Below, one piece after another: positions 6,298-44,182 of a stretch of 64,000 bases of DNA. Below the pieces are notes generated by a model. It was not told where the DNA came from and searched no databases. It saw only the letters and a program-made list of their open reading frames with translations. Positions within the stretch are counted from its first letter, which is position 1; each line of letters begins with the position of its first letter. Origin of the DNA: Alphaproteobacteria bacterium (GTDB lineage Bacteria > Pseudomonadota > Alphaproteobacteria > Bin95); the NCBI GenBank assembly GCA_963665325.3, contig CAXXWS020000002.1:448001-512000 (forward strand). The letters run 5' to 3'. The position numbers and the translations under genes were made by a program.

Positions 6298-6318
6298 GCA
6301 GCAGCAGCAGCAGCAGCA
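6298..6318 (+). repeat. (GCA)7 microsatellite
   Basis: Seven perfect GCA units near the element's left end. Confidence 0.8.
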
Positions 6319-8913: not shown

Positions 8914-8939
8914 GGCAAGAACAGCCGGAGGAGGAAACG

Positions 8940-13087: not shown

Positions 13088-13091
13088 GCTT

Positions 13092-14147
13092 ATGGCCCGA
13101 AGACGCCACATGGAGCGCGATGCCGCCATCAGCCGCGCCGTCGCTGCCGGCCAGAGCGTCCGCTCCATTGCCGTCGACTACGACCTCGCCGTCTCGACGG
13201 TCTACGGCATCACCCGCCGCGAGGGCTGGACGTTCCATAACGGCCCGAGGCAGAAGCCCGGCTTCTGCGCTCGCGGCTGCTGCCCGCGTCCCCTGCCGCG
13301 CCCGCGCAACCGCTTCTGCAGCCATGAGTGTTTCGTGGCCTGGCGCCGGGCCCATCTTCCCGTCTGCCCCGGATGCGGAGGCAGGGTCGGGCGCCTCTCC
13401 TCCAAGTTCTGCTCGCGCCTCTGCTACCGGCTCTGGCTCCGGGACCGCTGGGCCGAAATCAACGAGGACCGCGACTGCCGCATCCTCATGGAAGCACGGT
13501 CCGGGAGGCCGCTGGCGCGGATCGCCGCCTTCCACGGCGTCAGCCACAGGACGGTCTCGAAGGTCGTCAACGGCCATCGGCAGGAAGACGGCGCCGTTTG
13601 CTCGGCTCCCGGCTGCCAGGCTCCGCTCCCACGGCGCCGGCTGCGTTTCTGCAGCGCCTCCTGCCGCCGGGCCTGGAACGAGGCACAGAGGCCGCCCTGC
13701 GCGAACGGTTGCGGCGCCCGCGCCAGCCGGCGCTCGGGTCGGTTCTGCGGCTCGCGCTGCCATGCCGCTCATGCCGCAGGCGAGGCCCGCCGGCGCAATC
13801 TCGTCCGCGACACATTCATGGTCCTCGCCGCGGCCGCCGGCGTGCCGCCCGCGGAGATCGCGCTCCGGACCGGCCTCAGCAAAGGCTATGTCTCGCAGAT
13901 CGTCCGCCGCCGCGACCGCCGTCTTCTTTCCGCCCCCGATCGCAAGGAGTCCGTCAGCATGTCCAGCATGCACATCCTGCCCGACGACCCCGACTGCCCG
14001 GATTGCGGCGCCCGCATGTGGAGCCGCACCGCACCCCGGACGAGGGAGTGCCAGGCATGCGGGTTCGTCCAGCATCTCGAGACGCTCGAAGAGAACGCAG
14101 AGCGTCTCCAGCGCGAAATCGACGCCGAAATCGCAAGCGGTGCCTGA
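13092..14147 (+). CDS. Protein with three HTH-like modules alternating with C..C-x-FCS..C zinc-finger pairs
   Basis: Repeated RD..I...A.G...IA...G.S..TV modules, four FC(S/G)..C motifs and a terminal CPDC...CQAC ribbon. Confidence 0.65.
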   Translation: MARRRHMERDAAISRAVAAGQSVRSIAVDYDLAVSTVYGITRREGWTFHNGPRQKPGFCARGCCPRPLPRPRNRFCSHECFVAWRRAHLPVCPGCGGRVGRLSSKFCSRLCYRLWLRDRWAEINEDRDCRILMEARSGRPLARIAAFHGVSHRTVSKVVNGHRQEDGAVCSAPGCQAPLPRRRLRFCSASCRRAWNEAQRPPCANGCGARASRRSGRFCGSRCHAAHAAGEARRRNLVRDTFMVLAAAAGVPPAEIALRTGLSKGYVSQIVRRRDRRLLSAPDRKESVSMSSMHILPDDPDCPDCGARMWSRTAPRTRECQACGFVQHLETLEENAERLQREIDAEIASGA

Positions 14148-15132: not shown

Positions 15133-15234
15133 GTGCGTCTTGCCGGCTATGCCCCGAAGGAACGCCGCAGCCCGTTGCCGCCCCGCGCGCGCGGGGCCAG
15201 AGCGTCCCGTCTTTCGAAACCCGAAGGACGGGAC

Positions 15235-16938: not shown

Positions 16939-17307
16939 ATGTCCAACGTCATCCCGATCGAGCCATACCTGTGGGACCAGGACGCGTCCGAATATCTGTA
17001 TCCGGACGAGGACTTCCACGAATACGACTACGAGCCGCTGCCCGAGCCGGTGCCGGTCTACGAGCCGCGCCCGAAGACCTACGACCTCCAGAAGCTCTCC
17101 GAGCTCACCGCAAAGCTCGGGCGGGAGTCCGGCTTCAATCTCGGCATCGACGAGACCGCGGTCGAGGCCGCCTTCCACTTCGCGAAGGAGCAGGCCGGGC
17201 GCATGGAGGTCCCGCTGGAGCAGGCGCTGGAGATCGCGGGCTGGGCCATTCTCAACTACGAGCGCGGGCGCCGCGACCCGGAACTCTACAGGATCCGGCC
17301 GTTCTGA
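16939..17307 (+). CDS. Acidic hypothetical protein
   Basis: AGGAGG RBS; high-GC3 codon usage. Confidence 0.75.
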   Translation: MSNVIPIEPYLWDQDASEYLYPDEDFHEYDYEPLPEPVPVYEPRPKTYDLQKLSELTAKLGRESGFNLGIDETAVEAAFHFAKEQAGRMEVPLEQALEIAGWAILNYERGRRDPELYRIRPF

Positions 17308-17418
17308 AGCGCCGCCAACCATAACCTCCTCGCCGCGCCGCCGGTCGCTGCCCCGGCAACCCCGGAGCCGGAAATGTCCGGGGCGCCTCGGGAGGGCCAG
17401 GAAGAGGGAGGCGGCGCC

Positions 17419-18447
17419 ATGCGTGGCGATCCAGCGCCAACACACAGCCTGAAGGACCTGAACGCCTTGCTGGCGGCCGATATCGAGGCCGTTTGCCGAC
17501 ATTACCTTCCGAACGGGAAGCGCAACGGCAACTACTGGCAGGTGGGCAGCACCGCCGGCGAGGAGGGCGCCTCGCTGCGCATCAACCTGTCCGGGCGCTG
17601 GCGTGGACGCTGGAGGGACTGGGCCAACCCGAAGGACCGGGGCAGCCCCCTCGACCTGATCCGCGCCGTGCGCAACTACGCCAGCATCGGGGAAGCGGCC
17701 GCCGAGGTGCGCCGCTACCTGGCGCTTCCGGCATATGAGCGGCCCCGGTGCGGTCCCCGCCGCCCGGACGGCGCGCCGGAGGCGCAGACGGGCCTGGAAC
17801 GGGTGCTCGAGGGCGCGAAGACGATCGGGGCAGACGACCCGGCCGGGCGTTATCTCGCCTCGCGCGGCCTCGCCATAGAGGACGCCCGCGCCGCCGGGCT
17901 GCGCTTCCGCCCCGACACCTGGGTCCAGGTGGACGGCAAGAAATGCGAGCTGCCGGCCCTGCTCGCGCCGATCCGCGCGCTCGACGGCACGCTGGAGGGC
18001 CTGCAGCGGATATTCCTCGCCCCGGACGGAAGCAAGGCCTCGATCCCGGACCCGAAACGGACCAGCGGGCGGCTCTTCTCCGGCGCCGTGCGCTGGCCCA
18101 TGTCCGGGGCGAGCCGCATGGTGCTGACCGAGGGGATCGAGGACGCGCTCGCCGTCATAAGGGCACTCGGCGCCGGCCGGCCTCACGATATCGCCGTCGC
18201 GGCCGCGATCTCCGCCGGGCGCGTCCACCGCGTCGGCCTCTCCCCGGACATCCGGCGCGTGACGCTCGTCCAGGACCGCGACATGGCGGGCGAACAGGCA
18301 TGGGTCGCACTCTGCCGCGAGCATGGAGGCTCCGCCCTGCTGCTCGACCGGATCATTCCCGGCAAGAAGGACGCCAATGACGAGCTCCTCGCGCTCGGCC
18401 CCGCCGGGTTCCTGGCGAGGCTCGCGGCCCAGGGACTGTCCGGCTGA
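17419..18447 (+). CDS. Toprim-domain (primase-like) protein, copy 1
   Basis: AVCRHYLP.G...W..G...GE.G.SL; YLASRGL; TEGIEDAL; D.D.AG; KDAND. Confidence 0.85.
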   Translation: MRGDPAPTHSLKDLNALLAADIEAVCRHYLPNGKRNGNYWQVGSTAGEEGASLRINLSGRWRGRWRDWANPKDRGSPLDLIRAVRNYASIGEAAAEVRRYLALPAYERPRCGPRRPDGAPEAQTGLERVLEGAKTIGADDPAGRYLASRGLAIEDARAAGLRFRPDTWVQVDGKKCELPALLAPIRALDGTLEGLQRIFLAPDGSKASIPDPKRTSGRLFSGAVRWPMSGASRMVLTEGIEDALAVIRALGAGRPHDIAVAAAISAGRVHRVGLSPDIRRVTLVQDRDMAGEQAWVALCREHGGSALLLDRIIPGKKDANDELLALGPAGFLARLAAQGLSG

Positions 18448-18618
18448 CACGGGGGCTGCAGGGCCACCGCCGCGCACGCCGCAGCCCTCCCGCCGGCGCC
18501 TCCGTTCCCGGCCGGCCGCCGGAAGTTGGGGAAGGGGTTGCCGAGGTATCGATGCGGGCGCGGCTTGCTTCCGGCCCGTTCCGATCCCATACTCCCCAAC
18601 GGACAGGAGACGAGGCAC

Positions 18619-19161
18619 ATGACCTCTCCCGAAACCCCTTCCCCGGAACCGCAGCGCAGCATGTTCGGCATCGGTGACGGCAGCTGGAAGGCGATGATCC
18701 CGGCCGCCACCGTGCTCACCTTTTTCGTGCTCTTTCTGGTCGGGATACTCGGCTGGTTCGACAGTCGCATCGACGGGGTCGAAATGCGCCTGACCGCCCA
18801 GATCGTCGAGGTGAAGGCGGATCTGACGAACCGGATTGATGAGGTTAAGGCAGACCTCAGAGCAACCGAGACTCGCCTGTCCGACCGGATCGACCGGGTC
18901 GAGACTCGCCTGTCGGACCGGATCGACCGGGTAGAGACCGATCTCGGCACCCGCATCGACGGGGTGAAGGCGGAACTGGCTGCGAGCGAGGCGCGCCGCG
19001 CGGCCGTGGATGCGCAGCTTTCCGCCGATATCGAGCAGGTCTCCGCCGGTGTCGCGGAGAACCGGGCCGCGCATCGCGAGCTCGCCGGCTTCGTGCGCGC
19101 CAGCCGCTCGCAGGAGCCGCCTCCGGCGAGCGACCGGCCGGGTCCCGCACCGCCGCAGTAG
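18619..19161 (+). CDS. Membrane-anchored protein with an 11-aa coiled-coil repeat
   Basis: One TM helix, then RID.VE(T/K)RL repeats; AGGAG RBS; candidate promoter TTGCTT-17-CATACT upstream. Confidence 0.8.
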   Translation: MTSPETPSPEPQRSMFGIGDGSWKAMIPAATVLTFFVLFLVGILGWFDSRIDGVEMRLTAQIVEVKADLTNRIDEVKADLRATETRLSDRIDRVETRLSDRIDRVETDLGTRIDGVKAELAASEARRAAVDAQLSADIEQVSAGVAENRAAHRELAGFVRASRSQEPPPASDRPGPAPPQ

Positions 19162-19287
19162 CCGCACGCACCCCATAGCCGGCGCCGTTTTCGCCCCTTC
19201 CCGGCCCAAGGTCGGGAAGGGGTTTTTCGTGGCGATCCGCGCGGGCCGTCCTGTTCGCGCGTCCCTCCACGACAGGAGACGCTGCCC

Positions 19288-20580
19288 ATGCCCGGCGCGC
19301 CGGCTTCCGTCCCTCGCGACACGCATCAACCCGCCGAAGCGGCGGACTGCAACTGCAACAGCGGCAAGTCCGCGGACGCTACGCCGCCCGTCCGTTCATA
19401 TTCCTGGCACGCGCGGCGCCGGCTCGCCACGCGCGGCCTCTGCCTGAACTGCGGCCAGGTGCCCCCGGCGGACGGCGCGAAATACTGCTCCGGCTGCATC
19501 GAGCGCCGCCGCGCCAGCGACCGCAAGGCCGCCCGCAAACGCCGCCTGCTGCGCCGTAACCGCGGCCTCTGCGCAGAGTGCGGCGCCGTGGCCGAAAAGC
19601 CCCGCCAGCGGCTCTGCGAGGCCTGCAACGACAAACACCGGGCCGTGAGCCGCCGGCGCCAGCAAGACCGAAAGGAAGAACGGAAGCGGGCAGGCCTGTG
19701 CGTACAGTGCGGAGGCAGGGCGCCGGCCGAAGGCAATGCGAGCTGCGACGACTGCCTCGCCCAGCGCCGGCTGGCATACCGCGTCCGCATCGACCGCCGC
19801 CGGCGCCAGGGCGACCGTTCGCTCTGCATCGAGTGCGGCAAGGCGCCCCCGGCTCCCGGCCGCCGCCGCTGCCCGGACTGCCAGCCGCTCACCGCCGGGC
19901 GCGACAGGGACGCCGCCAGACACCGCCGGGAGGCCCGCCGCTCTGTCGGCCTCTGCACAGTCTGCGGGCAGCATTCCGCCGTCCGCGGACGCACGGCCTG
20001 CGAGGCCTGCCTCGCGGGCTGGCTTGACCAGTACAACCGCAAGACCCTGGCCCGCGTCGCGCAAGGCCTTTGCATCCGGTGCGGGAAAGAGCCCCCGGCA
20101 ACCGGGTTCACCGCGTGCGAGCCCTGCCGGGACAGCCACCGCGCCGCCAGTCTTGCGAAGTGGCGCCGGCGCACTGCCGAACGCCGCGCCATGCAGCGCT
20201 GCATACGCTGCGGCGAGGATCTCGCCGACGGGGAGCAGGAGGTCTGCGAGCCCTGCCGCGACACCCAGCGCCTGAGCGCGCGCCGGCGTGCCGACCGCCG
20301 CAAGGCGCTGGGCGTCTGCGTTCGCTGCGGGCGGCGCCCCGCCGGGCGAGGAGCGCGCGACTGCGGCCCCTGCCGCGACCGCCAGCGCGCCTACGCCTGG
20401 CGCGGCATGCCCGACCTGCCGCCCCGCTACACCGTGATCGAGATCGCCACCGGCACCGATCACGGCACCTGGGAAACCGTCCAGGAGGTCGCGGGCGCGC
20501 TCGCCTATGCGAAGCTGACGCTCGACGACGTCGAGATCCTGACCGACGCCGCGCCCATGGCCGCCTTCAGGAGCTGGTGA
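19288..20580 (+). CDS. Tandem C4 zinc-finger repeat protein A (8 x CxxC-x11-CxxC plus basic helix)
   Basis: Eight GLC..CG..P...G...C..C repeats; AGGAG RBS; 59-aa C-terminal tail shared with its paralogue. Confidence 0.8.
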   Translation: MPGAPASVPRDTHQPAEAADCNCNSGKSADATPPVRSYSWHARRRLATRGLCLNCGQVPPADGAKYCSGCIERRRASDRKAARKRRLLRRNRGLCAECGAVAEKPRQRLCEACNDKHRAVSRRRQQDRKEERKRAGLCVQCGGRAPAEGNASCDDCLAQRRLAYRVRIDRRRRQGDRSLCIECGKAPPAPGRRRCPDCQPLTAGRDRDAARHRREARRSVGLCTVCGQHSAVRGRTACEACLAGWLDQYNRKTLARVAQGLCIRCGKEPPATGFTACEPCRDSHRAASLAKWRRRTAERRAMQRCIRCGEDLADGEQEVCEPCRDTQRLSARRRADRRKALGVCVRCGRRPAGRGARDCGPCRDRQRAYAWRGMPDLPPRYTVIEIATGTDHGTWETVQEVAGALAYAKLTLDDVEILTDAAPMAAFRSW

Positions 20581-20715
20581 CGCCGCCTCGCATCCCCTTC
20601 CCGGTCCCCGGCAGCCGCAACGCCGCCAAGGTCGGGAAGGGGTTGTTCGTGCGATCCGCGCGGGTCCGCCATTGGCAACCGCCCGCGCCCGTTTCCCGAT
20701 CAGGAGATATCGCAC

Positions 20716-21027
20716 ATGCCCGGCATGCCCGTTTCCGTCCTTCGCCCCGATGCGAACACCTTTCTGACGCACGTCTTCGGCCGCGGCCTCCAGGACAAGA
20801 CCTATGTGGTCGAGCGCTACCGCACCGGCATCGACGGCGAGATCCGGCGCCTGCCGGGCGGCAGGGGCCATCCGCTCACCCTCTCGCTGGCGACCGTCCG
20901 GGAGCTGCGCCCGGCGCGCAACGAGATCCTGATCTGCCGGTGCGAGAAAAAGCCGGACTCCGGCATCCAGTACTGGGGGGTGTGGGCGACCGGGCTCTTC
21001 GCGGAGGGCAGGCGCAAGGGGCGCTGA
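20716..21027 (+). CDS. Hypothetical protein (103 aa)
   Basis: AGGAG RBS; follows motif copy 3. Confidence 0.75.
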   Translation: MPGMPVSVLRPDANTFLTHVFGRGLQDKTYVVERYRTGIDGEIRRLPGGRGHPLTLSLATVRELRPARNEILICRCEKKPDSGIQYWGVWATGLFAEGRRKGR

Positions 21028-21137
21028 GGCGTTCACGCTCCGGCGCCTCGGTTCTCCCCTTCCCGGTCAGCAAGGTCGGGAAGGGGTTTTTCCTTCCGAA
21101 CCCGCCGTCGCTCGCTTTCCAGTCGTCAGGATCCGCC

Positions 21138-22322
21138 ATGGCACCGAGCCGCACCACCCAGCTGCGCCACGCCCGCCGCGAGGCAGGCCTTTGCCAGGAA
21201 TGCGGACAGGTCCCCCCGGAGGGCAACTCCACGCACTGCGCCGCTTGCAGCCAGCGCCGGCGCGAAAACAGGCGCCGGTCCCAGCAAAAGCGCCGCATGC
21301 GTCTTCGCGAACGCCTGCTCTGCCTGGACTGTGCCAAAGCCGCGCCCGAGCCTGGCCGCGCCCGTTGCTCTTCCTGCGCCGAAACGCACCGCACCGCCAC
21401 CAGGCACACCAACCGGCTCCTCCGCGAAACCCGGCTCAAGGCCGGCCTCTGCCGCCAATGCGGCCAGAAGCCTGCGGCGCCCGGCAATGCCACCTGCGAC
21501 GACTGCCTTGCCGCGCGCCGCCAAGCCTACCGCGCCAGCACCGCCAGGAAACGCCGCCGCACTGACCCCTCTGTCTGCCTTGACTGCGGCAACAACTCTG
21601 CGGCCCCCGGCAAACCCCGTTGCCCCGCATGTGTTCGTCTCGCCGCCAGGGCCCTCCGCGACCGGCTCCGCGCGGCCGGCATCTGCACAACGTGTACGGC
21701 ACGCCCCGTCACCGACGGTCACACCACCTGCGGTCACTGCCGGGACGCCAATCTCGCCTGGTTTCACCGCGAACAGGGCCGCCGCAAATCCGAAGGCCTC
21801 TGCCGCAAGTGCGGGCAGCAACCTCCCCTTGCGGGATTCACGCTCTGCCTGCCATGCCGCGAGAAGAGCCGCTTCGCTGGCCATGCGACCTGGGTCCGGC
21901 AAACGACGGAACGCCTGACATGCGGGTTATGCGTGCGTTGCGGGCAACATCCCGCTGCGGAGGGCGTCCGTGAATGTCCCGCTTGCCGTGAATACTCCCG
22001 CTCACGGGCGCTGGCCTATTACCGCCGAACGTCGTCCGAACGAAAGGCGCTGGGCCTTTGCGTCCGTTGCGGCAGGCGGCCCCCCGAACGCGGCACGCTC
22101 GACTGCGGTCCCTGTGGCGACAAGCAGCGCGCCCGCGAGTATCGCGGCATGCCCGACCTGCCCGACCGGTACACCCTGATCGAGATCGCGACCGGAACCG
22201 ATCACGGCACCTGGGACAACCTCCAGGAAGTCGCGGGCGCGCTGGCCTACGCGAAGCTCACGCTCGACGACGTCGAGATCGTCACCGACGCCGGGCCCAT
22301 GGCCGCCTTCAGGAGCTGGTGA
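21138..22322 (+). CDS. Tandem C4 zinc-finger repeat protein B (8 repeats)
   Basis: Same architecture and near-identical tail as 19288-20580; AGGA RBS. Confidence 0.8.
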   Translation: MAPSRTTQLRHARREAGLCQECGQVPPEGNSTHCAACSQRRRENRRRSQQKRRMRLRERLLCLDCAKAAPEPGRARCSSCAETHRTATRHTNRLLRETRLKAGLCRQCGQKPAAPGNATCDDCLAARRQAYRASTARKRRRTDPSVCLDCGNNSAAPGKPRCPACVRLAARALRDRLRAAGICTTCTARPVTDGHTTCGHCRDANLAWFHREQGRRKSEGLCRKCGQQPPLAGFTLCLPCREKSRFAGHATWVRQTTERLTCGLCVRCGQHPAAEGVRECPACREYSRSRALAYYRRTSSERKALGLCVRCGRRPPERGTLDCGPCGDKQRAREYRGMPDLPDRYTLIEIATGTDHGTWDNLQEVAGALAYAKLTLDDVEIVTDAGPMAAFRSW

Positions 22323-22426
22323 CGCCGGCCCCATCCCCTTCCCGCCCCGGCAGCCGCATGGCCGCCAAAGGTCGGGAAGGGGCTTGTCGAGGGTGACTGC
22401 AAACAGCCACCCGGAGGACATATCCG

Positions 22427-22693
22427 ATGCCCGAGCCCGCCCCCTCGATGCGCACGTTCCGGATCGACGGAATCGGCCATGCCGGCGAGACCCTCGACAC
22501 CTGGTTCGTCGAGGCCCCCTGTTCCCGGCAGGCGCTGTCCCGCCTCTCCGAGAGCCTGGCGGACCGCGCCGAAACCGCCGGCTGGCGCCTCTACACGCTC
22601 CAGTACTGCGCCGATATCCGCATCGACGAAGTCGACGCCGCGCTGGCGTCCCCCGGCGCTGCCGCCTATATTCCGCAACAGGGAGTCGCCTGA
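22427..22693 (+). CDS. Hypothetical protein (88 aa)
   Basis: GGAGG RBS; follows motif copy 5. Confidence 0.72.
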   Translation: MPEPAPSMRTFRIDGIGHAGETLDTWFVEAPCSRQALSRLSESLADRAETAGWRLYTLQYCADIRIDEVDAALASPGAAAYIPQQGVA

Positions 22694-22696
22694 TCC

Positions 22697-23065
22697 ATGG
22701 CCATGACCGCATTCGAAACCGCCACGCTGGCATTCCAGAAGGCGACCGTCGCTTTCCAGGAATCCACCATGCGGTTCCAGGAATCCACTATCGGATTCCA
22801 GAACGCTTCCCTCGAGCTGCAACGCGACGGTCTCTATCTCCAGGAGGCCGCCATCTACGTCCAGGCCGGCGTCGGCCTTCTTCAGGCTGCCCTGATCGGC
22901 TACGGGCTCTGGATGATGCACCGCGCGTCCACGGACCGGAACCGCCTCATGGACGAAGAACGTGTTCGCGCCGATCGGCGACATGAGGAAGCCATGACCG
23001 CCCTCAAGGAGCTGATCGCGCGCACGGCGTCCCCCTCCTCTCCTCCCGGCGCCAGCGCCGCTTGA
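22697..23065 (+). CDS. Heptad-repeat membrane protein
   Basis: FETATLA/FQKATVA/FQESTMR/FQESTIG/FQNASLE heptads followed by a hydrophobic helix. Confidence 0.7.
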   Translation: MAMTAFETATLAFQKATVAFQESTMRFQESTIGFQNASLELQRDGLYLQEAAIYVQAGVGLLQAALIGYGLWMMHRASTDRNRLMDEERVRADRRHEEAMTALKELIARTASPSSPPGASAA

Positions 23066-23198
23066 CCCGCCGGGCGTTCTTCGCCCCGCATCTCCTTCCC
23101 TTCCTGCCCGTTCCCGGCCGCTGCGGCATTCACGCCGCAAAGGTCGGGGACGGGTTTTTCGGGTGGTGCCAACCAGTTCCACCGAAAGGGCTTGAGCG

Positions 23199-23552
23199 AT
23201 GCAGCACATGAACGAGACCATCCGCAGCGTGCTGGCCGCGCACGGCATCGAGCGAAGATTCGCTGTCCTGCTCGCGGACCACGCAAGCAGCAATTTCAAC
23301 GAGCATTCCTACCTGGTCGAGTGGCCGGGCGAGCTCGGCGGCGCGCTCGTCTACCGGAGCGAGGAGGCCTGGCGAGCCGCCGCGGGCGACGACGCCTCCT
23401 GCTTCGACCTCTGGCCCTGGGCCGTCGAGGAAGTCTGCACCGATTACATGTACGCGGCGATGTACGAGGCCGGAATGTTCGACGAACACGGCGAGGTGGC
23501 GGAGGACTGCCCCCAGCGCGAAGCGGCGATCCAACTCTGCCTGGGCAACTGA
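23199..23552 (+). CDS. Acidic hypothetical protein (117 aa)
   Basis: Follows motif copy 6; rich in Glu, Asp and aromatic residues. Confidence 0.72.
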   Translation: MQHMNETIRSVLAAHGIERRFAVLLADHASSNFNEHSYLVEWPGELGGALVYRSEEAWRAAAGDDASCFDLWPWAVEEVCTDYMYAAMYEAGMFDEHGEVAEDCPQREAAIQLCLGN

Positions 23553-23682
23553 CCGGTCCGGCATTCCGGTCGGCGCTTCCCCATCCCCGGCCTTTGCGGC
23601 ATCGACGCTGCGAAGGTGGGGAAGGGGCTTTTCGCGGTGAGTTCGAGCAACTCGCAATCAACCAGTTGCAGGGAGCAACACC

Positions 23683-24102
23683 ATGAACGGCCTGAACCGC
23701 GTCGACCTGATCGGCAACCTCGGCGGCAACCCCGAGATCCGGACCATGCAGAACAGCAGCGAGGTCGCCAATTTCTCCATCGCCACCAACGAGGTCTACA
23801 AGGACCGCCAGACCGGCGAGTACAAGGAGCTCACCGAGTGGCACCGGATCGTCGTCTACCAGCAGGGTCTCATCGACATGCTGAAGAAGCACGGCGAGAA
23901 GGGCCGCCTGGCGCACATCACCGGCAAGCTGCGCACCCGCAAGTGGACGGACCGCGACGGCAACGACCGCTACTCCACCGAGATCGTGGTCGGCCCCCGC
24001 GGCTGCATCAACTTCCTCGACCCCAAGCGGGACGGGGCGGGGAACGGAAACCGTCCGCCGGCGCCGCCCCCGGAAGCCTATCAGGACGATTTCGCCGCCT
24101 GA
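23683..24102 (+). CDS. ssb: Single-stranded DNA-binding protein
   Basis: NRV.LIGNLG..PE, TEWHRIV, G.LRTRKW.D..G..RYSTEI and an acidic tail (DDF). Confidence 0.95.
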   Translation: MNGLNRVDLIGNLGGNPEIRTMQNSSEVANFSIATNEVYKDRQTGEYKELTEWHRIVVYQQGLIDMLKKHGEKGRLAHITGKLRTRKWTDRDGNDRYSTEIVVGPRGCINFLDPKRDGAGNGNRPPAPPPEAYQDDFAA

Positions 24103-24115
24103 GCGAACGCCCCCC

Positions 24116-24150
24116 AGCCCCGGAACCCGAGGGTTCCGGGGCTTCTTCCT
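24116..24150 (+). terminator. Intrinsic terminator-like hairpin after ssb
   Basis: agccccggaaccc-ga-gggttccggggct followed by a pyrimidine run; similar hairpins close other cassettes at 24675-24700, 27274-27306 and 27941-27970. Confidence 0.7.
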
Positions 24151-24406
24151 TGTACGCTCAGCAACGTCCCGGGGCCCGCCTCGGCGCGTTTTTTCGTTGC
24201 CCCCGTCCGCGGGTCCCCCGCACTTCGGTGACCTCCGTCTTCCCGGGCTGGGCCCGGAAGGGATGGCGGAACGCGGCCGCTCTTTGCTGATCGCCGGAGC
24301 GCCGCCCCGGTCCGGAGAAGGTGGGGAAGGGGTTTTCCGGGCGGCATTGCGGGCCTCGCTCCTGCTTGCCCTCGTGCTACAATCCCCCACAGAAAGGAGC
24401 TGCACC

Positions 24407-24664
24407 ATGACCGCAGCCGATCTCGCCCCCTGGACAACGCCCGCGATCACCATCGCCCTCATCGCCTGGCTCCGCATGGACCTCGGCAAGCGCATCGACC
24501 GTCTCGAGGAGCGAATGGACCGGCGCATCGACGGCATCAACGCGCGTCTCCGTGCCCTGGAAATCGCCGTCGGCGCCATGGCGGCCAAGCTCGACCTGCT
24601 CGAGCGCTACTTCCTGCGGCCGAACGAGCCTCTCGACAAGCCGTCCCCGGAAGCGTCCGAGTAG
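24407..24664 (+). CDS. Small TM plus coiled-coil protein (85 aa)
   Basis: AAAGGAG RBS; TGnTACAAT extended -10-like box upstream. Confidence 0.78.
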   Translation: MTAADLAPWTTPAITIALIAWLRMDLGKRIDRLEERMDRRIDGINARLRALEIAVGAMAAKLDLLERYFLRPNEPLDKPSPEASE

Positions 24665-24945
24665 CTTCCCCCTGACCCCGGCCTCCGCGCCGGGGTTTTT
24701 CCATTCCGACGATCCAGCGCCTCGGGCCCCGCCCCCGGGGCGCTTTTTCGTGCCCCCGTTCCCGGCCTGCCCGTACTGCCGGGCGTCCCGCATGCCGGGC
24801 GCTGGCCGGGAAGCGTTCTGTGCGGCCGGCCGTCGCCCATCAGCCGCCGTCGTGCCGGCCGCGAGGCAAGAAAGGTGGGGAAGGGGTCTGTCGGGCGGTA
24901 TCGCGGCCATCCCGGTCGCGACCGCAGCCCGAAAGGATTTTCGGA

Positions 24946-25122
24946 ATGACCGTTCTGCTGGACCTCGCCTTCGACGCGATCGACGATCGCCACGCCGTCG
25001 CCGAGCTCGGACTCGATGCGCTCCCCCTCCGCGACAGCGTCCTGGAGGACAGCCTGCCCCGCTGGGGAGACCAGGCGACCCTGTTCCCCTGGGAGCCCGA
25101 TACCGCCGGAGACGCCGGCTGA
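24946..25122 (+). CDS. Small acidic protein (58 aa)
   Basis: AAAGGA RBS; follows motif copy 9. Confidence 0.6.
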   Translation: MTVLLDLAFDAIDDRHAVAELGLDALPLRDSVLEDSLPRWGDQATLFPWEPDTAGDAG

Positions 25123-25747
25123 ACCCTGTCGCCCCGATGCCCCCCGGCGTCGGGGCGATCGTTCTGTACCGGCTCACCGCCGCGGCCCCCCGGTCCGTGC
25201 CTATATGCCTGCCGGCAGTCGCTTCGCTCCGGTAGCGGCATCGTGGGCGGGGATGGCCGGTCCGGAGCCGGGCCGCATCGAACCCGCCGTCCGGTCGCAG
25301 GCTCCCTCCCGTCACGTCCGCTGCTGACCGCCCGGTTCCAGACCGGCTGCGGGGACGCCGGGCCGCGACCGCCGCGCCGGGCGGGCTTCGCCCTTCCCCC
25401 CGTCACGCCGCCCGCTTGAGGCCCGGCTTGAATCTGAAATCGACACCCTCGCTGCGCTCGCCCGGCGCAGGCGCCGGATGAGGGCCGCTTCGCGCCCTGG
25501 CGGAGCGTGCTGCGCACGCGGGAGGCCGGTCGTGGCCTTCGGCATGCCGGGGGCGCTGCGCTGTGACCCCCCGGCAGGCCGAAAGCCGTTGGTGGGGGGC
25601 AGGGGCAGCCGGAGGCATGGCGGCATGGGGAGACCTGGAAATGCAACCCGCGACCTCGGGCAGGCCTGGAAAAGGTGGGGAAGGGGTTGTTCGGGTGGAT
25701 TCGCGGCCAATCCGGTCGGCGACGGTGATCCGGAAGGAGGATCGGTC

Positions 25748-26776
25748 ATGGCGGTCATGCATGGAGGCATTTCGCTGCAGGAGCTGGCAGCGCGGCTGGC
25801 GACCGAGATCGAGGCGGTCTGCGCCTACTATCTGCCGAACGGCCGGCGTGACGGCCCGTTCTGGCAGGTGGGCAGCGTCGCGGGCGAGCCCGGCAGCTCG
25901 CTGCGCGTCAATCTGGCGGGCCGGCTGCGCGGGCGCTGGAAGGACTGGGCGAACGGGCGGGATCGCGGCGACGCGCTGGACCTGATCCGCGCGGCCCGGG
26001 ACCTGGCGTCGGTCGGCGAGGCCGCGAAGGAGGCCCGGCGCTTCCTGTCCCTGCCCGATGCCGAGCGCCCGGCTTCGGTCGTGTCCGTTGCGGCATGCCG
26101 GCCGGTGAACCGGGCGGGCCTGGAGCAGGTGCTGGCCCGTTCGCGCGCGATCTGCGCCGACGACCCGGCCGGGCGCTATCTCGCCTCGCGCGGGCTGGCG
26201 GTGGACGACGCGCGGGACGCCGGCCTGCGGTTCCGGCCCGACGCCTGGGTGCAGGTGGACGGGCAGAAGCTGGAACTGCCGGCCCTGCTGGCGCCGATCC
26301 GCGCGCCGGACGGGACGCTGGAGGGCCTGCAGCGCATCTTCCTCGCCCCGGACGGCGGGAAGGCGGCGATCGCGGACCCGAAGCGGACCAGCGGGCGGCT
26401 CCACTCCGGCGCCGTGTGGTGGCCTGCTGCCGACGATGCGCGGCACGTGGTGCTGACCGAGGGCGTGGAGGACGCGCTCGCGGTCCGCCGGGCCCTGGGC
26501 GCGCATGGCCGCCGGCATATCGCCATCGCGGCTGCCGTGTCCGCCGGGCGCATCCCGCAGGTCGCCCTGCCGCCCGGCACGGTGCGGGTCACGCTGGTGC
26601 AGGATCGGGACCGCGCGGGCGAGGAGGCCTGGGCCGCGCTGGTCAACAGGCATGCCGGCCCGGATGTGCTGGTCGGGCGCCTCGTCGCCGGCGCGAAGGA
26701 TGCGAATGACGACCTCCTCCGGCTCGGCCCCGCCGGATATCGCCGGCTGCTGCTCTGCGGGGGCCTGCCGGCCTGA
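25748..26776 (+). CDS. Toprim-domain (primase-like) protein, copy 2
   Basis: Paralogue of 17419-18447 with the same 1029-nt length; AAGGAGG RBS. Confidence 0.85.
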   Translation: MAVMHGGISLQELAARLATEIEAVCAYYLPNGRRDGPFWQVGSVAGEPGSSLRVNLAGRLRGRWKDWANGRDRGDALDLIRAARDLASVGEAAKEARRFLSLPDAERPASVVSVAACRPVNRAGLEQVLARSRAICADDPAGRYLASRGLAVDDARDAGLRFRPDAWVQVDGQKLELPALLAPIRAPDGTLEGLQRIFLAPDGGKAAIADPKRTSGRLHSGAVWWPAADDARHVVLTEGVEDALAVRRALGAHGRRHIAIAAAVSAGRIPQVALPPGTVRVTLVQDRDRAGEEAWAALVNRHAGPDVLVGRLVAGAKDANDDLLRLGPAGYRRLLLCGGLPA

Positions 26777-27008
26777 GCCACGATGCCCGGCGCCATCGGC
26801 GTCGGGCATCTGTTGCGTACCGGTCCGGGGCGCAGTTGGCGCCGGCCCCGCCGCGCCGTGGCGGTGGATGGCCGCGGAACGGGCCTGGAAGGGAATGGCG
26901 GGGCGTTCGGGGGATTTCGGCTGCCCGTACGCGCCGGGGCCGGCCGATGCGGCCGGGAGAAAGGTGGGGAAGGGGCTGTTGGGGTAAATCCCGAACAGGA
27001 GAGAGACG

Positions 27009-27266
27009 ATGAACGGCGACGCATACTGGACCGTGGACATCCTGCTGCCCTACTACACCGGCGGGCAGCGCTGGCGGGTCGTGCATGGCGGCGGGAGCGA
27101 GCAGCTCGCCCGGCGCATGCTGGACGCGGAGCGCCGGAACGGCAACCGCGCGCGCCTGCGCTGCTGGACAGCCGAGGTCGTGGACGCCGATGAGGTGCAA
27201 GACCTCGCCGAAGCGGTCCCCGTTCCTCAGCCTGCCGACCGGCTGGACAACGCGGTCCCCTTCTGA
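27009..27266 (+). CDS. Hypothetical protein (85 aa) ending in an SSB-like acidic tail (DNAVPF)
   Basis: AGGAG RBS; follows motif copy 11. Confidence 0.72.
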   Translation: MNGDAYWTVDILLPYYTGGQRWRVVHGGGSEQLARRMLDAERRNGNRARLRCWTAEVVDADEVQDLAEAVPVPQPADRLDNAVPF

Positions 27267-27599
27267 AGCAGAGAGCCCCGGCGCCTCCGGCGCCGGGGCT
27301 TCTTCTATGTACCGCTCCGGCGGCCTCCTCCCGGGCGGCCGGGAGACCGGCTCCGCTATCCGGAACCCTGGCGGGGCCTCCGCAGGCTCCGGCCCCGCCA
27401 GGAACCCGGAAGACTGCGCCTGGAAGTTCCTCCTGACGGCGACGTCTGGCGCAAGCGCCAGGTCGCTTCGCTCCCGGGCCGGGAAGGAGGAATGCTGTCG
27501 GCCGGCGCTTCGGCGGCGAAATCCAAAAGGTAGGGAAGGGGTTGTTCGGGTGGAATTGCGGTCAATCCCGGCCGCGATCGCGAAGAGATGGAGACAGCG

Positions 27600-27932
27600 A
27601 TGTCGATTCCCGCCAACCGGGCCCTCGTGCCGTTCCGCCCGTTCCTGATCGTCCGCGTGGCCGAGTTCGATGACGAGCCCGCCGAGATCCGCACCGCTGC
27701 CAGCCGCGAGGACTGCGAGCGCGCCCTGTTCGACTGGATCGAGGAGAGCGTCGTCCCCAACGAGATCTCCGGCGGGTCCTTCAATCCCGGTGAGGGCTGT
27801 TACACCTTCGCCGCCAGTGAATATGGCGAGCTTCGCCACCAGCGGACCGAACGCCCGGACGGAGGCTGCCACTTCGGTCCCTGGGCCGAAGAAGCCCGTC
27901 CCGCCGCCGGCAACGACCCGTGGCCGTTCTGA
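27600..27932 (+). CDS. Hypothetical acidic protein ending DPWPF
   Basis: GGAG RBS; follows motif copy 12; terminator downstream. Confidence 0.7.
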   Translation: MSIPANRALVPFRPFLIVRVAEFDDEPAEIRTAASREDCERALFDWIEESVVPNEISGGSFNPGEGCYTFAASEYGELRHQRTERPDGGCHFGPWAEEARPAAGNDPWPF

Positions 27933-28149
27933 TCCCGATCGCCCGGCGCCGAAAGGCGTCGGGCTTTCTTCATGTTGCGGTCGCCGGGACGGCTCGCCCT
28001 CAACGCTGCGTTGCGCCCCGTCCGGCTCCCGCATTACCTGCCGGAGCCCGGGGTTTCCTGCCGATTGTCCGGCCCGCACCCCGCTTCACCCATCGGGGCC
28101 CCTTGCGCCGATCCGCGCCGCTGCCCTATCCTTCGCTCATGAGGTATGC

Positions 28150-28330
28150 CCTGGAGAATGTCGAGAAAATAGGTTGGCACACCTGTGCACCCAGGTGCAA
28201 TTCAAACTATCAACAATTTCAACGACTTATCCGGTCGATGAAATTCGGAAGGCGCGGCACACGGAACCCGGAGGACCAGCCGCCCGGTGGATGTATCCGG
28301 GGAGCACCGATCGCATGCTCCGATCGGCCA
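28150..28330. promoter_or_regulatory. Candidate oriT / relaxase promoter region
   Basis: AT-rich non-coding island between the cassette array and the relaxase genes; short inverted repeats cacctg-N6-caggtg (28180-28197) and ccgatcg...cgatcgg; nic site not identified. Confidence 0.4.
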
Positions 28331-28370
28331 TTCCTGCGCTTGCCTGTTACGTGAACACTGGGCCCTGACG

Positions 28371-29627
28371 ATGGTAGCGAGGATCACCAAACTGACGAAA
28401 CCGGACCTCTATGCCGGACGCAGGGCGCCCTGGACCGGCAAATGGCGCAACCCGTCAGGCCTGCTGCATCTCGCGGACGGCGGCGCCGTTTCCGACAGGG
28501 ACTTCCTTTCCCTGTGGAGGGGGTTCGCGCCCGGAGACGGCTGGCCCCTGTCGCGCCGCGCCCTCAGCCGGACCCACATGCCCGGCTTCGACATCGTGCT
28601 CTCGCCCGACAAGTCGATCTCGGCGCTCTGGGCCATCTCTCCGGAGTTCGACCGCAAGCGCATCGAGCGCACGGTCATGGACGCGGCCGGGATCGCGATC
28701 ACCCGCACGGTCTTCCGGCATTGCGCTGTCACCCGGGCCGGTACGTCCGGCAGGAATTTTCAGGTTGAGACCGGCGACATCCTGGTCGCGATCTTCCCGT
28801 TCCACATCTCCCGCGAACTCGATCCGCAACTGGACGTCAGCTGCGCCATCTTCAATTTGGTGCAGACGCACCGGGACCTGAGGTTCCGGACCCTGCACGC
28901 CTATCCCCTGTATTCCTGGCAGAAGGCCATCGGCGCCACTTTCCGGAGCCGTTTGGCGTATCGGTTGCGCAGCCGCCTCAGCATCGGGATGGAACGGCAT
29001 GGCGAGCAAGGCGAATACACCCGCATCCGGTGCATGGACCCCGGCCTCGAAGAGTTCTGGAGCAAACGGAAATCAAAGTTGTTGGCCAGTCGGGCAAGGA
29101 AGACAATGCCCGACCCGACATCCCTCCACGGCGCCCAATCATCGAGTGCGCCTCTGCGGATCAAACGCACGGCGATCGACGCTGACACGGCCAGGTTCAG
29201 GGATGAAGCAGCCGCATTCGTCGATCCCGATGCCCTGCATACACGGATCGTCCGGTCCGCATCCAATGACGTGACTGAACGCCAGCACGACAGCGTCCGC
29301 CGGGAGATCGACGACATTCCCCGCACGCTCGCCGCGTCGGACCTGGTCTTCAACACGGCCGACATCGTCGCCCGGGTGGAGAACGCCGCCGGCGGCCTGT
29401 TCGACGACGACGCCATGGACGGGTGGCTCGAATTCGCCCTGGCCGCCGACAACCTGCTCCCGCTGGACCATGAAGACCCGAACCCCGACGCCGTCGCCGG
29501 CATGGCCCACAAGCGCCTGTTCACGACCCGTGACATCCTGGACGCCAACCCGGATCACAAGCGGCTTTCCGGCCTCAGAGTTGCGCCTCTACAGCCGGAA
29601 GCACCCACGGAGCCTTCGCGGTGGTAG
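28371..29627 (+). CDS. Degenerate MOBF (TrwC-like) relaxase domain lacking catalytic residues
   Basis: Colinear with the N-terminus of 29621-35974 (PGFDI..S.DKSISALWA), but has no YY pairs and HISRELDPQLDVS in place of H.SR..DPQLHVH. Confidence 0.82.
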   Translation: MVARITKLTKPDLYAGRRAPWTGKWRNPSGLLHLADGGAVSDRDFLSLWRGFAPGDGWPLSRRALSRTHMPGFDIVLSPDKSISALWAISPEFDRKRIERTVMDAAGIAITRTVFRHCAVTRAGTSGRNFQVETGDILVAIFPFHISRELDPQLDVSCAIFNLVQTHRDLRFRTLHAYPLYSWQKAIGATFRSRLAYRLRSRLSIGMERHGEQGEYTRIRCMDPGLEEFWSKRKSKLLASRARKTMPDPTSLHGAQSSSAPLRIKRTAIDADTARFRDEAAAFVDPDALHTRIVRSASNDVTERQHDSVRREIDDIPRTLAASDLVFNTADIVARVENAAGGLFDDDAMDGWLEFALAADNLLPLDHEDPNPDAVAGMAHKRLFTTRDILDANPDHKRLSGLRVAPLQPEAPTEPSRW

Positions 29628-32600
29628 CGACGATCGCCAAGATGGCCGTGCCGTCCTACTACATCGAGAGCCAGGCGGCGCATGAGGGCTACTACACGGG
29701 CGGCGGCAAGGAGCGCCCGGGCGAGTGGTACAACCCGACCGGCCTCTTCCGTCTGAAGGATGGCGGCCTCGTCTGGGAGAAGAAGTTCTACGCCCTCTGT
29801 GGCGGCCGGTCGCCGGAACTCGACGGCACCGACCTCGTGCGCAATGCCGGCTCGGAGAAACGGTCGCCCGGCTTCGACATCACCTTCTCGGCCGACAAGT
29901 CGATATCCGCGCTCTGGGCGGTCTCGCCGAGGGCGGAAGACCGCGAGAAGATCGAGCGCGCCGTGATCGACGCCGCGCGCTGCGCTCTCGACGAGACCGT
30001 GTTCAGGCATTGCGCGACCACGCGTGTCGGCAAGTCAGGCGTGGATCTCCGTATCGAGACCGGCGACATGCTGGCGGCGATCTTCCTCCACCGCACGTCG
30101 CGCGAGGGCGATCCGCAGCTGCACGTGCATTCGACGATCTTCAATGTCGTCAAGACGCACTCTGACGGCAAATACCGCGCCCTGCACGGCTATCCGCTCT
30201 ATTCCTGGAAGAAGGCCGCAGGCGCGGCGTTCCGGGGCCATCTCGCCCACATCATGCAGGAACGCCTCGGCATCGCCATGGAGCGGCACGGGCCCGAGGG
30301 CCAGTACAGCCGCATCCGCGAGATGGACGGCGATCTGGAGCAGTTGTGGAGCAAGCGGCGCGCCCAGCTCGTTGCGACCGTTGCCGAACATCTGGGCGAG
30401 GAAGCGCTCGCCAACCCGGCCCAGATGGCCGCCGCGACGCTTGCAACCCGTTCGCGAAAGCCCGAGGGCGGTCCCTCGACGGAGGAAGACATCGAGCGCT
30501 TCCTGGAGGAGGCCGCTGAACTCGTCGATGTCGCGGAACTCCGGGACCGCATCCGCAATGCCGGGATCGAGGAGCTCACCCACGAGCGCATCGCCGAAAT
30601 CCACGACGAGATCGTCGCGATCCCGGAGAAGCTCGCGCGGATGGAGGCCGTCTTCAATGTCCCGAACATCATGGAGAAGCTCGAGAACGCACTTGCCGGC
30701 GCCGTCGACCGCGAGGCCATGCAGCGCTGGCGCGAGGTTGCGCTCGGGAATGCCGAGCTGGTCTCCCTCGAATATCCGGAGCCCGCCATCGAGGCCCAGG
30801 CCGGCATGGCGCACAAGCAGATCTTCACCACGAAGGAAACGCTCCGCGCCGAGCGCACCCTGCGCCACATCTCCGGCCTCTCGGTTTCGGACCGCACCCA
30901 CGCCGCCGATCCGGACAAGGTCGCGCGGCTCCTCGAGGACCTCGGCAACCGGGGCAAGCGCTTCAGCGCCGAGCAACGCAGGGCCATCCAGTACGCCGCG
31001 GCGGACTCCGGGCGGATCGCCCTCATCGAGGGGGCGGCCGGCGCCGGCAAGTCCCACGTGCTGGGGCCGCTCGCGGACCTCTGGCGCGCCGAAGGCTACA
31101 AGGTGCGCGCACTCGCGGTCGCCTGGTCGGTCGCACGCGAGCTCGCCAGCGACATCGACGCGCCGCCGAGCGCCGTCCATCCCTTCCTGAAGGACGTCCA
31201 CAAGGGCGCCGTCAATGTCGGCCCCGACACCGTCCTGGTCGTGGACGAAGCCGGCATGCTGTCGACGCGCCAGACGCTGCAGCTCGCCAGGCTGAGCGAG
31301 GAGACCGGCTGCAAGCTCCTGCTGGTCGGCGACACGCAGCAGCAGCAGCCGATCGAAGCCGGGCCGGGCATGCGCATCGTCAAACAGCGCGTGAAGGGCG
31401 TGCGCATCGACCGCATCCGCCGACAGCTCCCGACGGTCGAGGACTATCTGCGCGAGATCGTGGGCCTGCCGGCTGAAGAAGCCATTGCGACGGCGGCGCC
31501 GATGACCCGCGAGGAACGCGACGCCGCCAGCAAGCGCTACACCGCCATGCGCCGCGAACGCCGGGCGGCCGGCGAGGAGCCCCTCTCCATCAAGCGCCCC
31601 TGGCAGCTCGGCGTATCGGCGCTGCTGCGCACGGGCGCCATGCACCAGGCGTTCATCGAGATCCACAAGCGCGGCCGCTTCACGCTGGCCGAAGGCAAGG
31701 AAGACGCGCTGCTCCGGCTCGTCGCCCACTGGTCCGCCTGGATGGCGGAGAACCCGGAGGGCGAGGCCGTCGTCATGGCGCGCACCCGCGCCGACGTGCG
31801 CGCGCTGAACGCCCTGCTTCGCGCCCGGCACCACGGCGCGAACGCACCGCCCGACTACAATCCCGCGACGGACTCCGCCGTCATCCGGATCCACCGCTTC
31901 CGCGACCGGGGCAAGGCCGTGGAGGACGATTTAGAGGTCCGCATCGGCGACCGCCTCCGGATCGGTGCCACCGTCTCCCGGCTCGGCCTCTACAACCGCG
32001 ACGCGGTCACCGTCACCGGGCTCGAAAAGCAGCAGGCCGAGGACGGCAGCACGCAGGTCCGCATCACGGCCCGAACGCAGGACAATCGAACGGTCCGCTT
32101 CGAGCCCGGCGACATCCGGAACTGGACCGGCGAGATCGCCATTGACTACGCCTATGCGGCGACCTGCACGACCGCCCAGGGCCTCACCATCGACGCCGGC
32201 TTCCTTTTGCTGGACGAAGGCATGGCGCGCGAGACCACCTATCCGGCCGCCACCCGGCACACGCGCCACCTGCAGGTCGTCGCCGACCGCCTGCCGGTCG
32301 CGATCGCGATCGCCGGCGCCACGCCCGACGGCGAGCCCGGCCATGAGGTCTCCGACGAGGAGATCGTCGCCACGCTCGGCCGGCTCTGCGGGCGCTCGCA
32401 GCCCAAGCAGGCCGCGATCGACTACATCCTGGCCGCAAACCAGGCGGACATGCCGCTCCAGGGCGAGCTCGAGATCGGGCGCGAGCCGGTCCCGGCCGCC
32501 GAAGCCGCCAACGACGCCGTCCAGCCCGGCACGGCCGGCGCCGGGCCGCGCTCTCCGGGCGAGCCTCCCGGCGCGGCCGTGCGCCGGCATGCCGACCGCG

Positions 32601-44135: not shown

Positions 44136-44182
44136 TACTCTGCTAGCCACGACCGTGACTTTCGAACTTGAGAGGCAAACTC

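Follow-up and report, generated by a model that had tools for sequence, protein, structure and literature searches.

A conserved box heads each unit of a candidate leading-region array in an alphaproteobacterial conjugative element and may combine terminator and promoter or operator functions

How are the genes of a leading region switched on when ten of its twelve transcription units carry no recognisable sigma70-like promoter? Leading regions decide the survival of a conjugative element on entry to a new cell, and the switching-on of their genes is known only for a few enterobacterial plasmids. The question is raised here by a stretch of 64,000 nt with a G+C content of ~70% (the window: positions 448,001 to 512,000 of the forward strand of contig CAXXWS020000002.1, assembly GCA_963665325.3), which comes from an uncultured alphaproteobacterial lineage and in which an integrated conjugative element runs from ~6.4 kb onward. 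At 18.5-27.9 kb, between its first primase-like gene and its relaxase genes with a candidate origin of transfer (oriT), the element carries an array of 12 units, each headed by the same box, which would make it a very clean regulon with one invariant signal.

The box is a purine-rich sequence of 24 nt with the consensus A-AGG(T)-S-GGGAAGGGG-yTkTyCGGG, in which a block A-AGGY-S-GGGAAGGGG is followed by a T-rich hexamer and then by GGG. Its 12 co-oriented copies lie at 18523-27548. When the 22-mer was searched with up to three mismatches, 11 plus-strand matches were found, against none in 100 dinucleotide-preserving shuffles, and the twelfth and weaker copy, AAGTTGGGGAAGGGG at 18523, which heads the first unit, was recovered by profile search and by the 15-mer at one mismatch. 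All 12 boxes are on the plus strand, with none inside a gene and none on the opposite strand, and 48-95 nt separate the start of each box from the chosen start codon. This agrees with a preliminary description of the same DNA, which had counted 12 co-oriented copies 48-96 nt before an ATG and had also noticed, correctly, that copies 9, 10 and 12 have ~35 further nt in common. The copies are as follows.

18523..18544, plus strand: box 1, weak variant AAGTTGGGG..., no local left arm
19193..19229, plus strand: box 2 (19208-19229), in a 14-bp hairpin with TTTTTCG, apparently doubling as the terminator of unit 1
20594..20649, plus strand: box 3 (20628-20649), right arm of a long bulged hairpin
21056..21093, plus strand: box 4 (21072-21093), in a 13-bp hairpin with TTTTTCC, terminator-like
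22335..22389, plus strand: box 5 (22368-22389), right arm of a long hairpin
23106..23161, plus strand: box 6 (23140-23161), variant GGGGACGGG, matched by left arm CCCGTTCCC
23579..23634, plus strand: box 7 (23613-23634), right arm of a hairpin; heads ssb
24318..24339, plus strand: box 8, no local left arm
24872..24893, plus strand: box 9, no conserved left arm; degenerate left-arm-like tract ~100 nt upstream
25672..25693, plus strand: box 10, no left arm; heads the second primase-like gene
26961..26982, plus strand: box 11, 48 nt before the ATG, no local partner
27527..27548, plus strand: box 12, no local partner

The 12 boxes stand against 13 open reading frames (ORFs) in the array, because unit 5 has two ORFs behind one box with none between them, and the box therefore marks units rather than genes. 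A profile built from the copies found no additional copy elsewhere in the 64-kb window. In the complete 5.58-Mb genome the exact 15-mer gave 10 matches, all of them within the array, and allowing one mismatch added only four (one in the array, three elsewhere), compared with four for a reversed control pattern. Since exact matches are confined to the array and matches outside it are at the control level, the box is not a repetitive extragenic palindromic (REP)-like sequence, and the genome-wide scatter that the preliminary description had named as the outcome that would count against it was not seen.

The same box is found in relatives of the element, 15 arrays of which were compared with that of the window (labels L...; five of them stop short or, as with L009, represent a remnant). 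The 16 arrays yield 34 distinct leader families, in which positions -1 to +13 vary hardly or not at all, conservation at positions +14 to +22 (yTkTyCGGG) is 60-85%, and the flanking sequence is close to background level. Part of the invariance seen in the 15-nt core was imposed by the pattern with which the copies were collected; for instance, L006 has AAGGC variants that the pattern missed and the profile search recovered. The A at -1 was not demanded by the pattern and is nevertheless invariant in all 34 families. The only other feature that the heads have in common is a weak A/T patch at +22 to +27.

Several copies are part of hairpins, and it was therefore proposed in the preliminary description that a co-varying hairpin is the signal common to all units. 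In copies 2-7 the box does pair locally and strongly with a C-rich left arm, as had been described, and these hairpins carry a T-run; copies 1, 8, 10, 11 and 12 are without a local partner. Copies 2 (14 pairs and TTTTTCG) and 4 (13 pairs and TTTTTCC) were called canonical intrinsic terminators by a terminator scan, and folding gave copies 3, 5, 6 and 7 as longer bulged hairpins with a weaker T-run; copies 1 and 8-12 do not have this anatomy. When the fold was tested on the 95 copies with full flanks by a crude rule, which asked for 10 or more of the 13 core bases to be paired between -50 and +14 and mislabels a few copies such as copy 9 of the window, 50 fell into the hairpin class and 45 had no local arm. 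The box is equally conserved in both classes. Because the arm-less copies keep the same box, selection acts on the box sequence and not on the fold, and the hairpin cannot be the signal shared by all units. Support for covariation is thin: the S position of the box is matched by the arm in some copies, and copy 6 and its L003 orthologue have GGGAACGGG or GGGGACGGG opposite CCCGTTCCC, a compensated G-to-C change that counts as one event, but in an alignment of 31 hairpin copies only one of 13 predicted pairs changed on both sides.

The T-run hairpins read better as terminators of the preceding unit than as a shared signal, judging from their position and anatomy. Hairpin copies begin shortly after the preceding stop codon, and the number of T's in the 8 nt after the box is 3.88 in the hairpin class versus 3.18 in the others. 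A separate terminator-like hairpin is present upstream of only 4 of the 50 hairpin-class copies versus 21 of the 45 other copies, which indicates that the left arm appears where no other terminator exists, and the units preceding the arm-less boxes 8-12 of the window end in a different, canonical terminator family. Two further elements were observed in these spacers. In units 7 and 9-12 the canonical terminator is followed by a second short conserved tract, TTCTxTGTACCGSTC-like (24143-24160, 25160-25175, 26812-26825, 27301-27315 and 27965-27980), and a conserved hairpin, GCGGCCGGC...GCCGGCCGC, precedes many arm-less boxes (24820-24868, with equivalents in L006, L010, L011 and L013) and is followed by GAGGCAnGAA, ending a few nucleotides before the box.

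This anatomy raises the possibility that the boxes are nothing but the 3' halves of one intrinsic-terminator family that was copied with the cassettes, the arm-less copies being relics and the promoters lying elsewhere. Copies 2-7 would be good terminators, the T-rich stretch always follows the box, and the degenerate left-arm-like tract ~100 nt upstream of copy 9 could be such a relic. However, relics would decay, whereas the arm-less copies keep the box while their flanks diverge; the arm-less units already have canonical terminators upstream; terminator stems need no fixed sequence; and 10 of the 12 units would be left without a promoter candidate. We give this explanation little credence.

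Where transcription could start was approached by promoter scans. Under strict rules no consensus promoter was found on either strand of 17300-29700. Under relaxed rules none was found on the minus strand of the array spacers and two were found on the plus strand: in unit 1 a sigma70-like TTGCTT-N17-CATACT at 18565-18593, downstream of the box, and in unit 8 an extended -10-like TGCTACAAT at 24375-24383. The earlier remark that there are no obvious sigma70 boxes thus holds for 10 of the 12 units, even under relaxed rules, but not for units 1 and 8. All units stand behind terminator-like structures, and in unit 11 the ATG follows the 15-nt core after only 33 nt. Because of these three findings, initiation must use the box or the DNA just around it. 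Readings of the aligned copies by eye as sigma54 or extracytoplasmic function (ECF) sigma factor promoters, as LexA boxes, or with the T-run as a -35 element were rejected, since the spacing or key bases misfit. The C-rich tract that comes after the -10 in units 1 and 8 was considered as a pairing partner of the box and likewise discarded, because the pairing showed no covariation across arrays.

Alternatively, the box might act in RNA: a single long transcript would cross the array, and the purine boxes in its spacers would be bound by a protein or an RNA controlling read-through (antitermination), processing or stability. With one promoter only, read-through would have to be controlled at the six junctions that have a hairpin and a U-run, and the G.T pairs of the stems and leader hairpins fall on the plus strand. 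Processive antitermination of establishment genes has reportedly been described for a Gram-positive plasmid (PMC6294495). Nevertheless, the scanned ORFs yielded neither a NusG/RfaH-like nor any other antiterminator family, no Rfam family matched (with E up to 1 over 16-30 kb there was one chance-level miRNA match only), double terminators precede several of the arm-less boxes, and no promoter is visible upstream of the array. Control at the RNA level is therefore, in our estimation, improbable.

The explanation that we favour, with a probability of about 0.5, is that the box is a composite terminator/promoter-or-operator element for a regulon of leading-region genes, as its sequence and setting suggest. 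The box would be a sequence-specific cis-signal on duplex DNA that marks the start of each leading-region transcription unit, either as the site recognised at an unusual promoter, one that requires an activator or an alternative factor, or as an operator that overlaps such a promoter. Where a C-rich arm lies just upstream, it would turn the G-rich box and its T's into an intrinsic terminator of the preceding unit, and gain of the arm in about half of the copies would have led to compact terminator/promoter junctions, other units keeping separate terminators. That the box drives or controls initiation, and that duplex DNA is the form in which it is read, is what we infer; a duplex reading would explain why the folding of the box does not matter. 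In units 1 and 8 the box might be a second promoter or an upstream site, because a sigma70-like promoter lies downstream of it. The one candidate regulator observed, which might be the protein that reads the box, is suggested purely by its position and type.

12633..14147, plus strand: multi-helix-turn-helix (multi-HTH) protein, 504 amino acids, matching PHROG 836 'late transcriptional activator' at 4.4e-11

The match to PHROG 836 is weak and spans ~45 residues, and a sequence search of the PDB with this protein and with the primase-like proteins of the element gave no match.

Several results weigh against this explanation. When a -10 element at a fixed distance from the box (at least 4 of 6 matches to TATAAT) was searched for in the leader families, no offset exceeded 2 of 34. 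The sigma70-like promoters of units 1 and 8 lie 40-60 nt downstream of the box, and the box is a non-palindromic polypurine tract, which is unusual for the operator of a dimeric repressor. Among the proteins of 52 distinct ORFs scanned with Pfam, a set that includes some but not all of the small ORFs, there was no sigma factor and no ArdK/KorA/TrfB-type regulator. Furthermore, distant relaxase loci, described below, are without a comparable header. Should the box indeed be a promoter or operator, it would imply a factor not so far described in control of establishment genes and would serve as a simple marker with which to catalogue such genes, nearly all of which are without known function. 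A fusion of terminator and start signal would also illustrate a way of insulating and shuffling cassette-like units that needs no integrase.

The form of DNA in which the box is read depends in part on which strand is transferred and in which order, for which the following features at the borders of the array are relevant.

17374..18447, plus strand: DUF7146 + Toprim_3 primase-like gene, immediately 5' of the array, carrying no box
28177..28199, minus strand: oriT candidate, with the hairpin TGCACC-CA-GGTGCA at 28186-28199
28287..35974, plus strand: tandem TrwC/MobF relaxase genes (28287-29627 and 29621-35974)

The hairpin of the oriT candidate follows the pattern TGCAYY-NN-RRTGCA, with two-sided changes across six loci, and is adjoined by a conserved CACACC; only on the minus strand does this tract become a GGTGTG that follows the hairpin on its 3' side. 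The resemblance between this GGTGTG and AGGTGGG in the box amounts to no more than 4-5 nt, on opposite strands. Sites of HUH relaxases have a hairpin 5' and a conserved nicking core 3'. Because GGTGTG stands 3' of the conserved hairpin on the minus strand, it is likely, if the HUH rule applies, that the minus strand is transferred, that the array enters first and that the transferred strand is the template of all array genes. All of the array genes are oriented toward the oriT candidate and the TrwC relaxase, with ssb among them, as had been pointed out at the start. For leading-region genes, PMC11541004 reports this orientation, with the transferred strand as template.

The geometry of the oriT candidate and the agreement of gene orientation with that rule would also suit a signal that works before the complementary strand is made, namely a start site on the transferred single strand, where the box would be read as its minus-strand complement by the primase-like proteins of the element or by a polymerase. 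RNA synthesis from the GGG after the T-rich stretch would then give primers and/or early transcripts at 12 sites. Two DUF7146-Toprim genes flank or sit in the array (PHROG 'DNA primase', 1.6e-27), and the layout of the box, with a 15-nt specificity block, a T-rich hexamer and GGG, resembles what we take to be compact start sites of single proteins. In addition, six leading-region operons of pESBL each possess a single-stranded DNA (ssDNA) promoter of their own, according to PMC12672017. Against this, about half of the copies have the box locked within a 13-21-bp stem and the others leave it unpaired, which is awkward for such a site; neither folding energy nor spacer z-scores show a strand preference (the plus strand is the more stable in 22-23 of 38 by folding energy, and z-scores are alike on both strands); no -35/-10 is rebuilt; and there are no copies beyond the first 10 kb. 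A signal on the single strand therefore seems unlikely to us, without being far-fetched. A more specific version, in which the box is a new kind of start site on the incoming strand (a 15-nt polypurine/polypyrimidine block, a T-rich melting stretch and GGG), the reader is a P4-alpha-like Toprim primase encoded by the element or a polymerase recruited by it, and the units are primed and/or transcribed separately on entry with the hairpins as additional roadblocks or terminators, is quite doubtful. Were the box read on single-stranded DNA, it would represent a new class of entry signal, a plasmid-specified and sequence-specific counterpart of the hairpin-type ssDNA promoters.

The preliminary description had likened the array to leading regions expressed from those hairpin-type promoters and inferred a new ssDNA promoter or priming signal. 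Frpo/ssi ssDNA promoters are, according to PMC12672017, large stem-loops that rebuild -35 and -10 boxes, pESBL having six of them in three classes. The array is like the leading regions of F, ColIb-P9 and pESBL in the position of the signal upstream of units, in having several units per leading region and, if the minus strand is the one transferred, in gene orientation. In contrast, half of its copies have no hairpin stem, and the stems of the others measure 13-21 bp and reconstitute a -35/-10 on neither strand. Moreover, the folding of 3 of the 12 spacers does not exceed that of shuffles, with z near 0 for both strands, and no strand is favoured. With neither a large stem-loop nor a rebuilt -35/-10 found, we do not class the boxes with the Frpo type.

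By analogy of function, the closest counterparts of a composite terminator/promoter-or-operator box would be the CUP elements of IncN plasmids and the PeSLs of T4-type phages. CUP elements are said to have been described originally by Delver and Belogurov in 1997. As summarised in PMC6289460, they are repeated conserved upstream elements of leading-region genes in IncN plasmids (pKM101/R46), where they are ArdK binding sites and form one regulon. As in that case, a repeated element heads several leading-region genes, and here all 12 of 12 units carry it. However, the sequences are not alike, the scan of 52 ORFs gave no ArdK/TrfB/KorA-type protein, the box is a non-palindromic polypurine sequence of which half of the copies double as terminator arms, and there are 12 units versus a handful, in an uncultured alphaproteobacterial lineage. 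PeSLs (promoter early stem-loops) are, according to PMC4122927, small conserved composite stem-loop terminator/promoter motifs that lie between many small genes without known function and mediate module shuffling, and indels between relatives end in the motif. The terminator half of such a composite is present in 6 of the 12 boxes here, and the promoter half would have to function without consensus hexamers. PeSLs belong to phage genomes and have an early promoter, whereas the array belongs to a conjugative element and lacks sigma70-like hexamers; and only one clean junction lies in a box, the enrichment of breakpoints over non-coding DNA not being significant (p 0.14). Ordinary intrinsic terminators are matched by copies 2-7, with a GC-rich stem and a T-run directly after the stop codon, but here the 3' arm has a fixed 15-nt sequence that is common to all units and is kept without the 5' arm. 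The present case thus differs from these systems by its sequence, the absence of recognisable promoter hexamers, the absence of an ArdK homologue among the scanned ORFs, its host lineage, and a terminator built from the box itself.

The distribution of the box in other genomes indicates how far the system extends. The 15-mer is present in 10 of the 37 genomes of the family (the order consists of the same 37 genomes), that is, in the genome of the window and in 9 of 16 congeners, and in none of the 10 genomes of each of two other genera; the copies in congeners form co-oriented clusters of 4-11. When one genome from each of ~185,000 species was searched with the 22-mer, 22 loci were found, 20 of them in alphaproteobacterial metagenome-assembled genomes, and the two others, single matches in unrelated phyla, are taken as chance. 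A megablast search of PLSDB with the array gave no match. In all 10 arrays with enough flank, the last box is followed after 0.7-2.8 kb by a TrwC-type relaxase gene in the same orientation, and in nine of these 10 the serine recombinase and the first primase-like gene lie upstream. SSB, the second primase-like gene and several small ORFs recur among arrays, and other families are found in one to three arrays only. Clustering next to relaxases with variable cassette content was what the preliminary description had proposed as a check, and this is what was observed. In contrast, relatives of the relaxase at E up to 1e-30 were found in 4 of 400 other genomes of the class, and the genome of the window (G000) carries a second element. 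The distant relatives, at 37-41% identity and in three other genera, have no comparable header; eight such loci were screened for 11-mers repeated at least four times and 3 of the 8 by repeat search. Therefore, they provide no comparative handle on the reader protein, and the system appears to be specific to this element family among the genomes searched.

The genes that the boxes head are mostly small, and nearly all of them are without a recognised family.

18619..19161, plus strand: unit 1, coiled-coil protein, 180 amino acids
19288..20580, plus strand: unit 2, Cys-rich zinc-ribbon repeat protein, 430 amino acids
20716..21027, plus strand: unit 3, 103 amino acids, no family
21138..22322, plus strand: unit 4, Cys-rich paralogue of the unit 2 protein, 394 amino acids
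22427..23065, plus strand: unit 5, two ORFs (88 and 122 amino acids) behind one box
23199..23552, plus strand: unit 6, 117 amino acids, no family
23683..24102, plus strand: unit 7, SSB (Pfam SSB, 4.7e-28)
24407..24664, plus strand: unit 8, 85 amino acids
24946..25122, plus strand: unit 9, 58 amino acids
25748..26776, plus strand: unit 10, DUF7146 + Toprim_3 (PHROG 510 'DNA primase', 1.6e-27)
27009..27266, plus strand: unit 11, 85 amino acids
27600..27932, plus strand: unit 12, 110 amino acids

An enrichment in anti-defence genes, as had been suggested from the likeness to leading regions, did not emerge, SSB and the primase-like proteins being the only ones recognised in the array. The proteins of units 2 and 4 (19288-20580, 21138-22322) are arginine-rich paralogues with ~8-9 CxxC...CxxC zinc-ribbon repeats and a C-terminal domain in common; no Pfam, NCBIfam or PHROG family was above threshold for them, and related genes are present in most arrays.

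Unit content varies between arrays, and the box and other short common tracts could provide the microhomology for unequal crossing-over by which units are added or removed. In L002 the 3' end of a Cys-rich gene, the left arm and a unit-5-type box are joined to the leader of unit 8, units 5-7 being absent, and this crossover lies within ~10 nt after the core, that is, inside the box. In L003 another switch is found at the ribosome-binding site. Contigs from metagenomes (four runs) connect parts of the array in other ways, such as a link from 22647 to 23561 seen in two runs and one from 24822 to 26958 seen in a single run, and a join of 20502 to 22014 corresponds to recombination between the Cys-rich paralogues; joins lie also inside paralogous genes and spacers and are not confined to boxes, and since these contigs are short, contig ends near boxes may be assembly breaks at repeats. 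The proteins of units 2 and 3 are unrelated and have a common leader and first ~10 codons (MPGxPxSV...; 19288-19320 and 20716-20750), so that module boundaries can fall inside the N-terminus. In L005 a 2.6-kb insertion after the ssb terminator (~6426-9058 of the oriented copy) contains two ORFs (117 and 212 amino acids) and no box detected by the pattern.

It had been suggested that the motif may serve as a recombination handle. One crossover does lie inside the box, but the clusters of BLAST homology endpoints, which are over-represented near boxes when the whole region is considered (12 of 87 versus 5% expected, p 0.0013), are not enriched there in comparison with non-coding DNA only (12 of 44 versus 19.5% expected, p 0.14). 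These data are read as ordinary recombination at any short common tract, box included, with no dedicated site. The stronger proposal that the boxes are the sites of a dedicated recombinase, making the array an integron-like cassette platform, could appeal to the variation of cassette content between arrays and to the deletion junction inside the box. We consider it very improbable indeed, because no IntI-type tyrosine recombinase stands beside the array, the neighbour being a large serine recombinase of the kind typically used for element integration, the box lacks palindromic symmetry, the other crossovers map to the ribosome-binding site or within paralogous genes, and breakpoints are not enriched at boxes within non-coding DNA. 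An integron attC/cassette array was likewise ruled out from the non-palindromic box and the serine type of the neighbouring recombinases. A tyrosine-type Arm-DNA-binding protein is encoded at 50206-51759, far from the array and on the opposite strand.

15133-16824: large serine recombinase, upstream of the array

The remainder of the element has the following layout. Its 5' part encodes, in this order, a DnaA_N-domain protein, ParA, a ParB-like protein, the 504-amino-acid multi-HTH protein and a nuclease-domain protein; these are followed by the large serine recombinase, a 122-amino-acid acidic protein, the DUF7146 + Toprim primase-like protein, the array, an A+T-richer spacer and the relaxases. 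Downstream, on the opposite strand, are a coupling protein and type IVB transfer genes (DotA/TraY, TraQ, TraW, TrbI-like). The element interrupts an isocitrate/isopropylmalate dehydrogenase-like gene, of which 5763-6473 keeps profile positions 2-108 of 348, and this truncated ORF is the probable left insertion border. The acidic protein (16939-17307), between the serine recombinase and the first primase-like gene, is very acidic, has an N-terminus rich in Pro, Glu and Tyr and no family match, and is kept in every array with enough flank.

The first relaxase consists of a relaxase domain only (446 amino acids) and the second is a relaxase-helicase of 2117 amino acids, with 46% identity across the shared domain. 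The tandem pair is also present in L006-L008, L010 and L013, L001-L005 having the long gene only, and a second, more distant tandem pair is found in the genome of the window (G000:C1:2048578-2051081). Directly 3' of the relaxase, 36744-42107 encodes a protein of 1787 amino acids with YAcAr (SLOG) and NADAR domains and a weak DprA-like match. Further downstream, 44000-50200 is an insert of lower G+C content (0.60-0.63) within the element, which encodes two resolvases, a PIN/Phd toxin-antitoxin pair, an N6/N4 methylase fused to HNH, and a Uma2-family nuclease.

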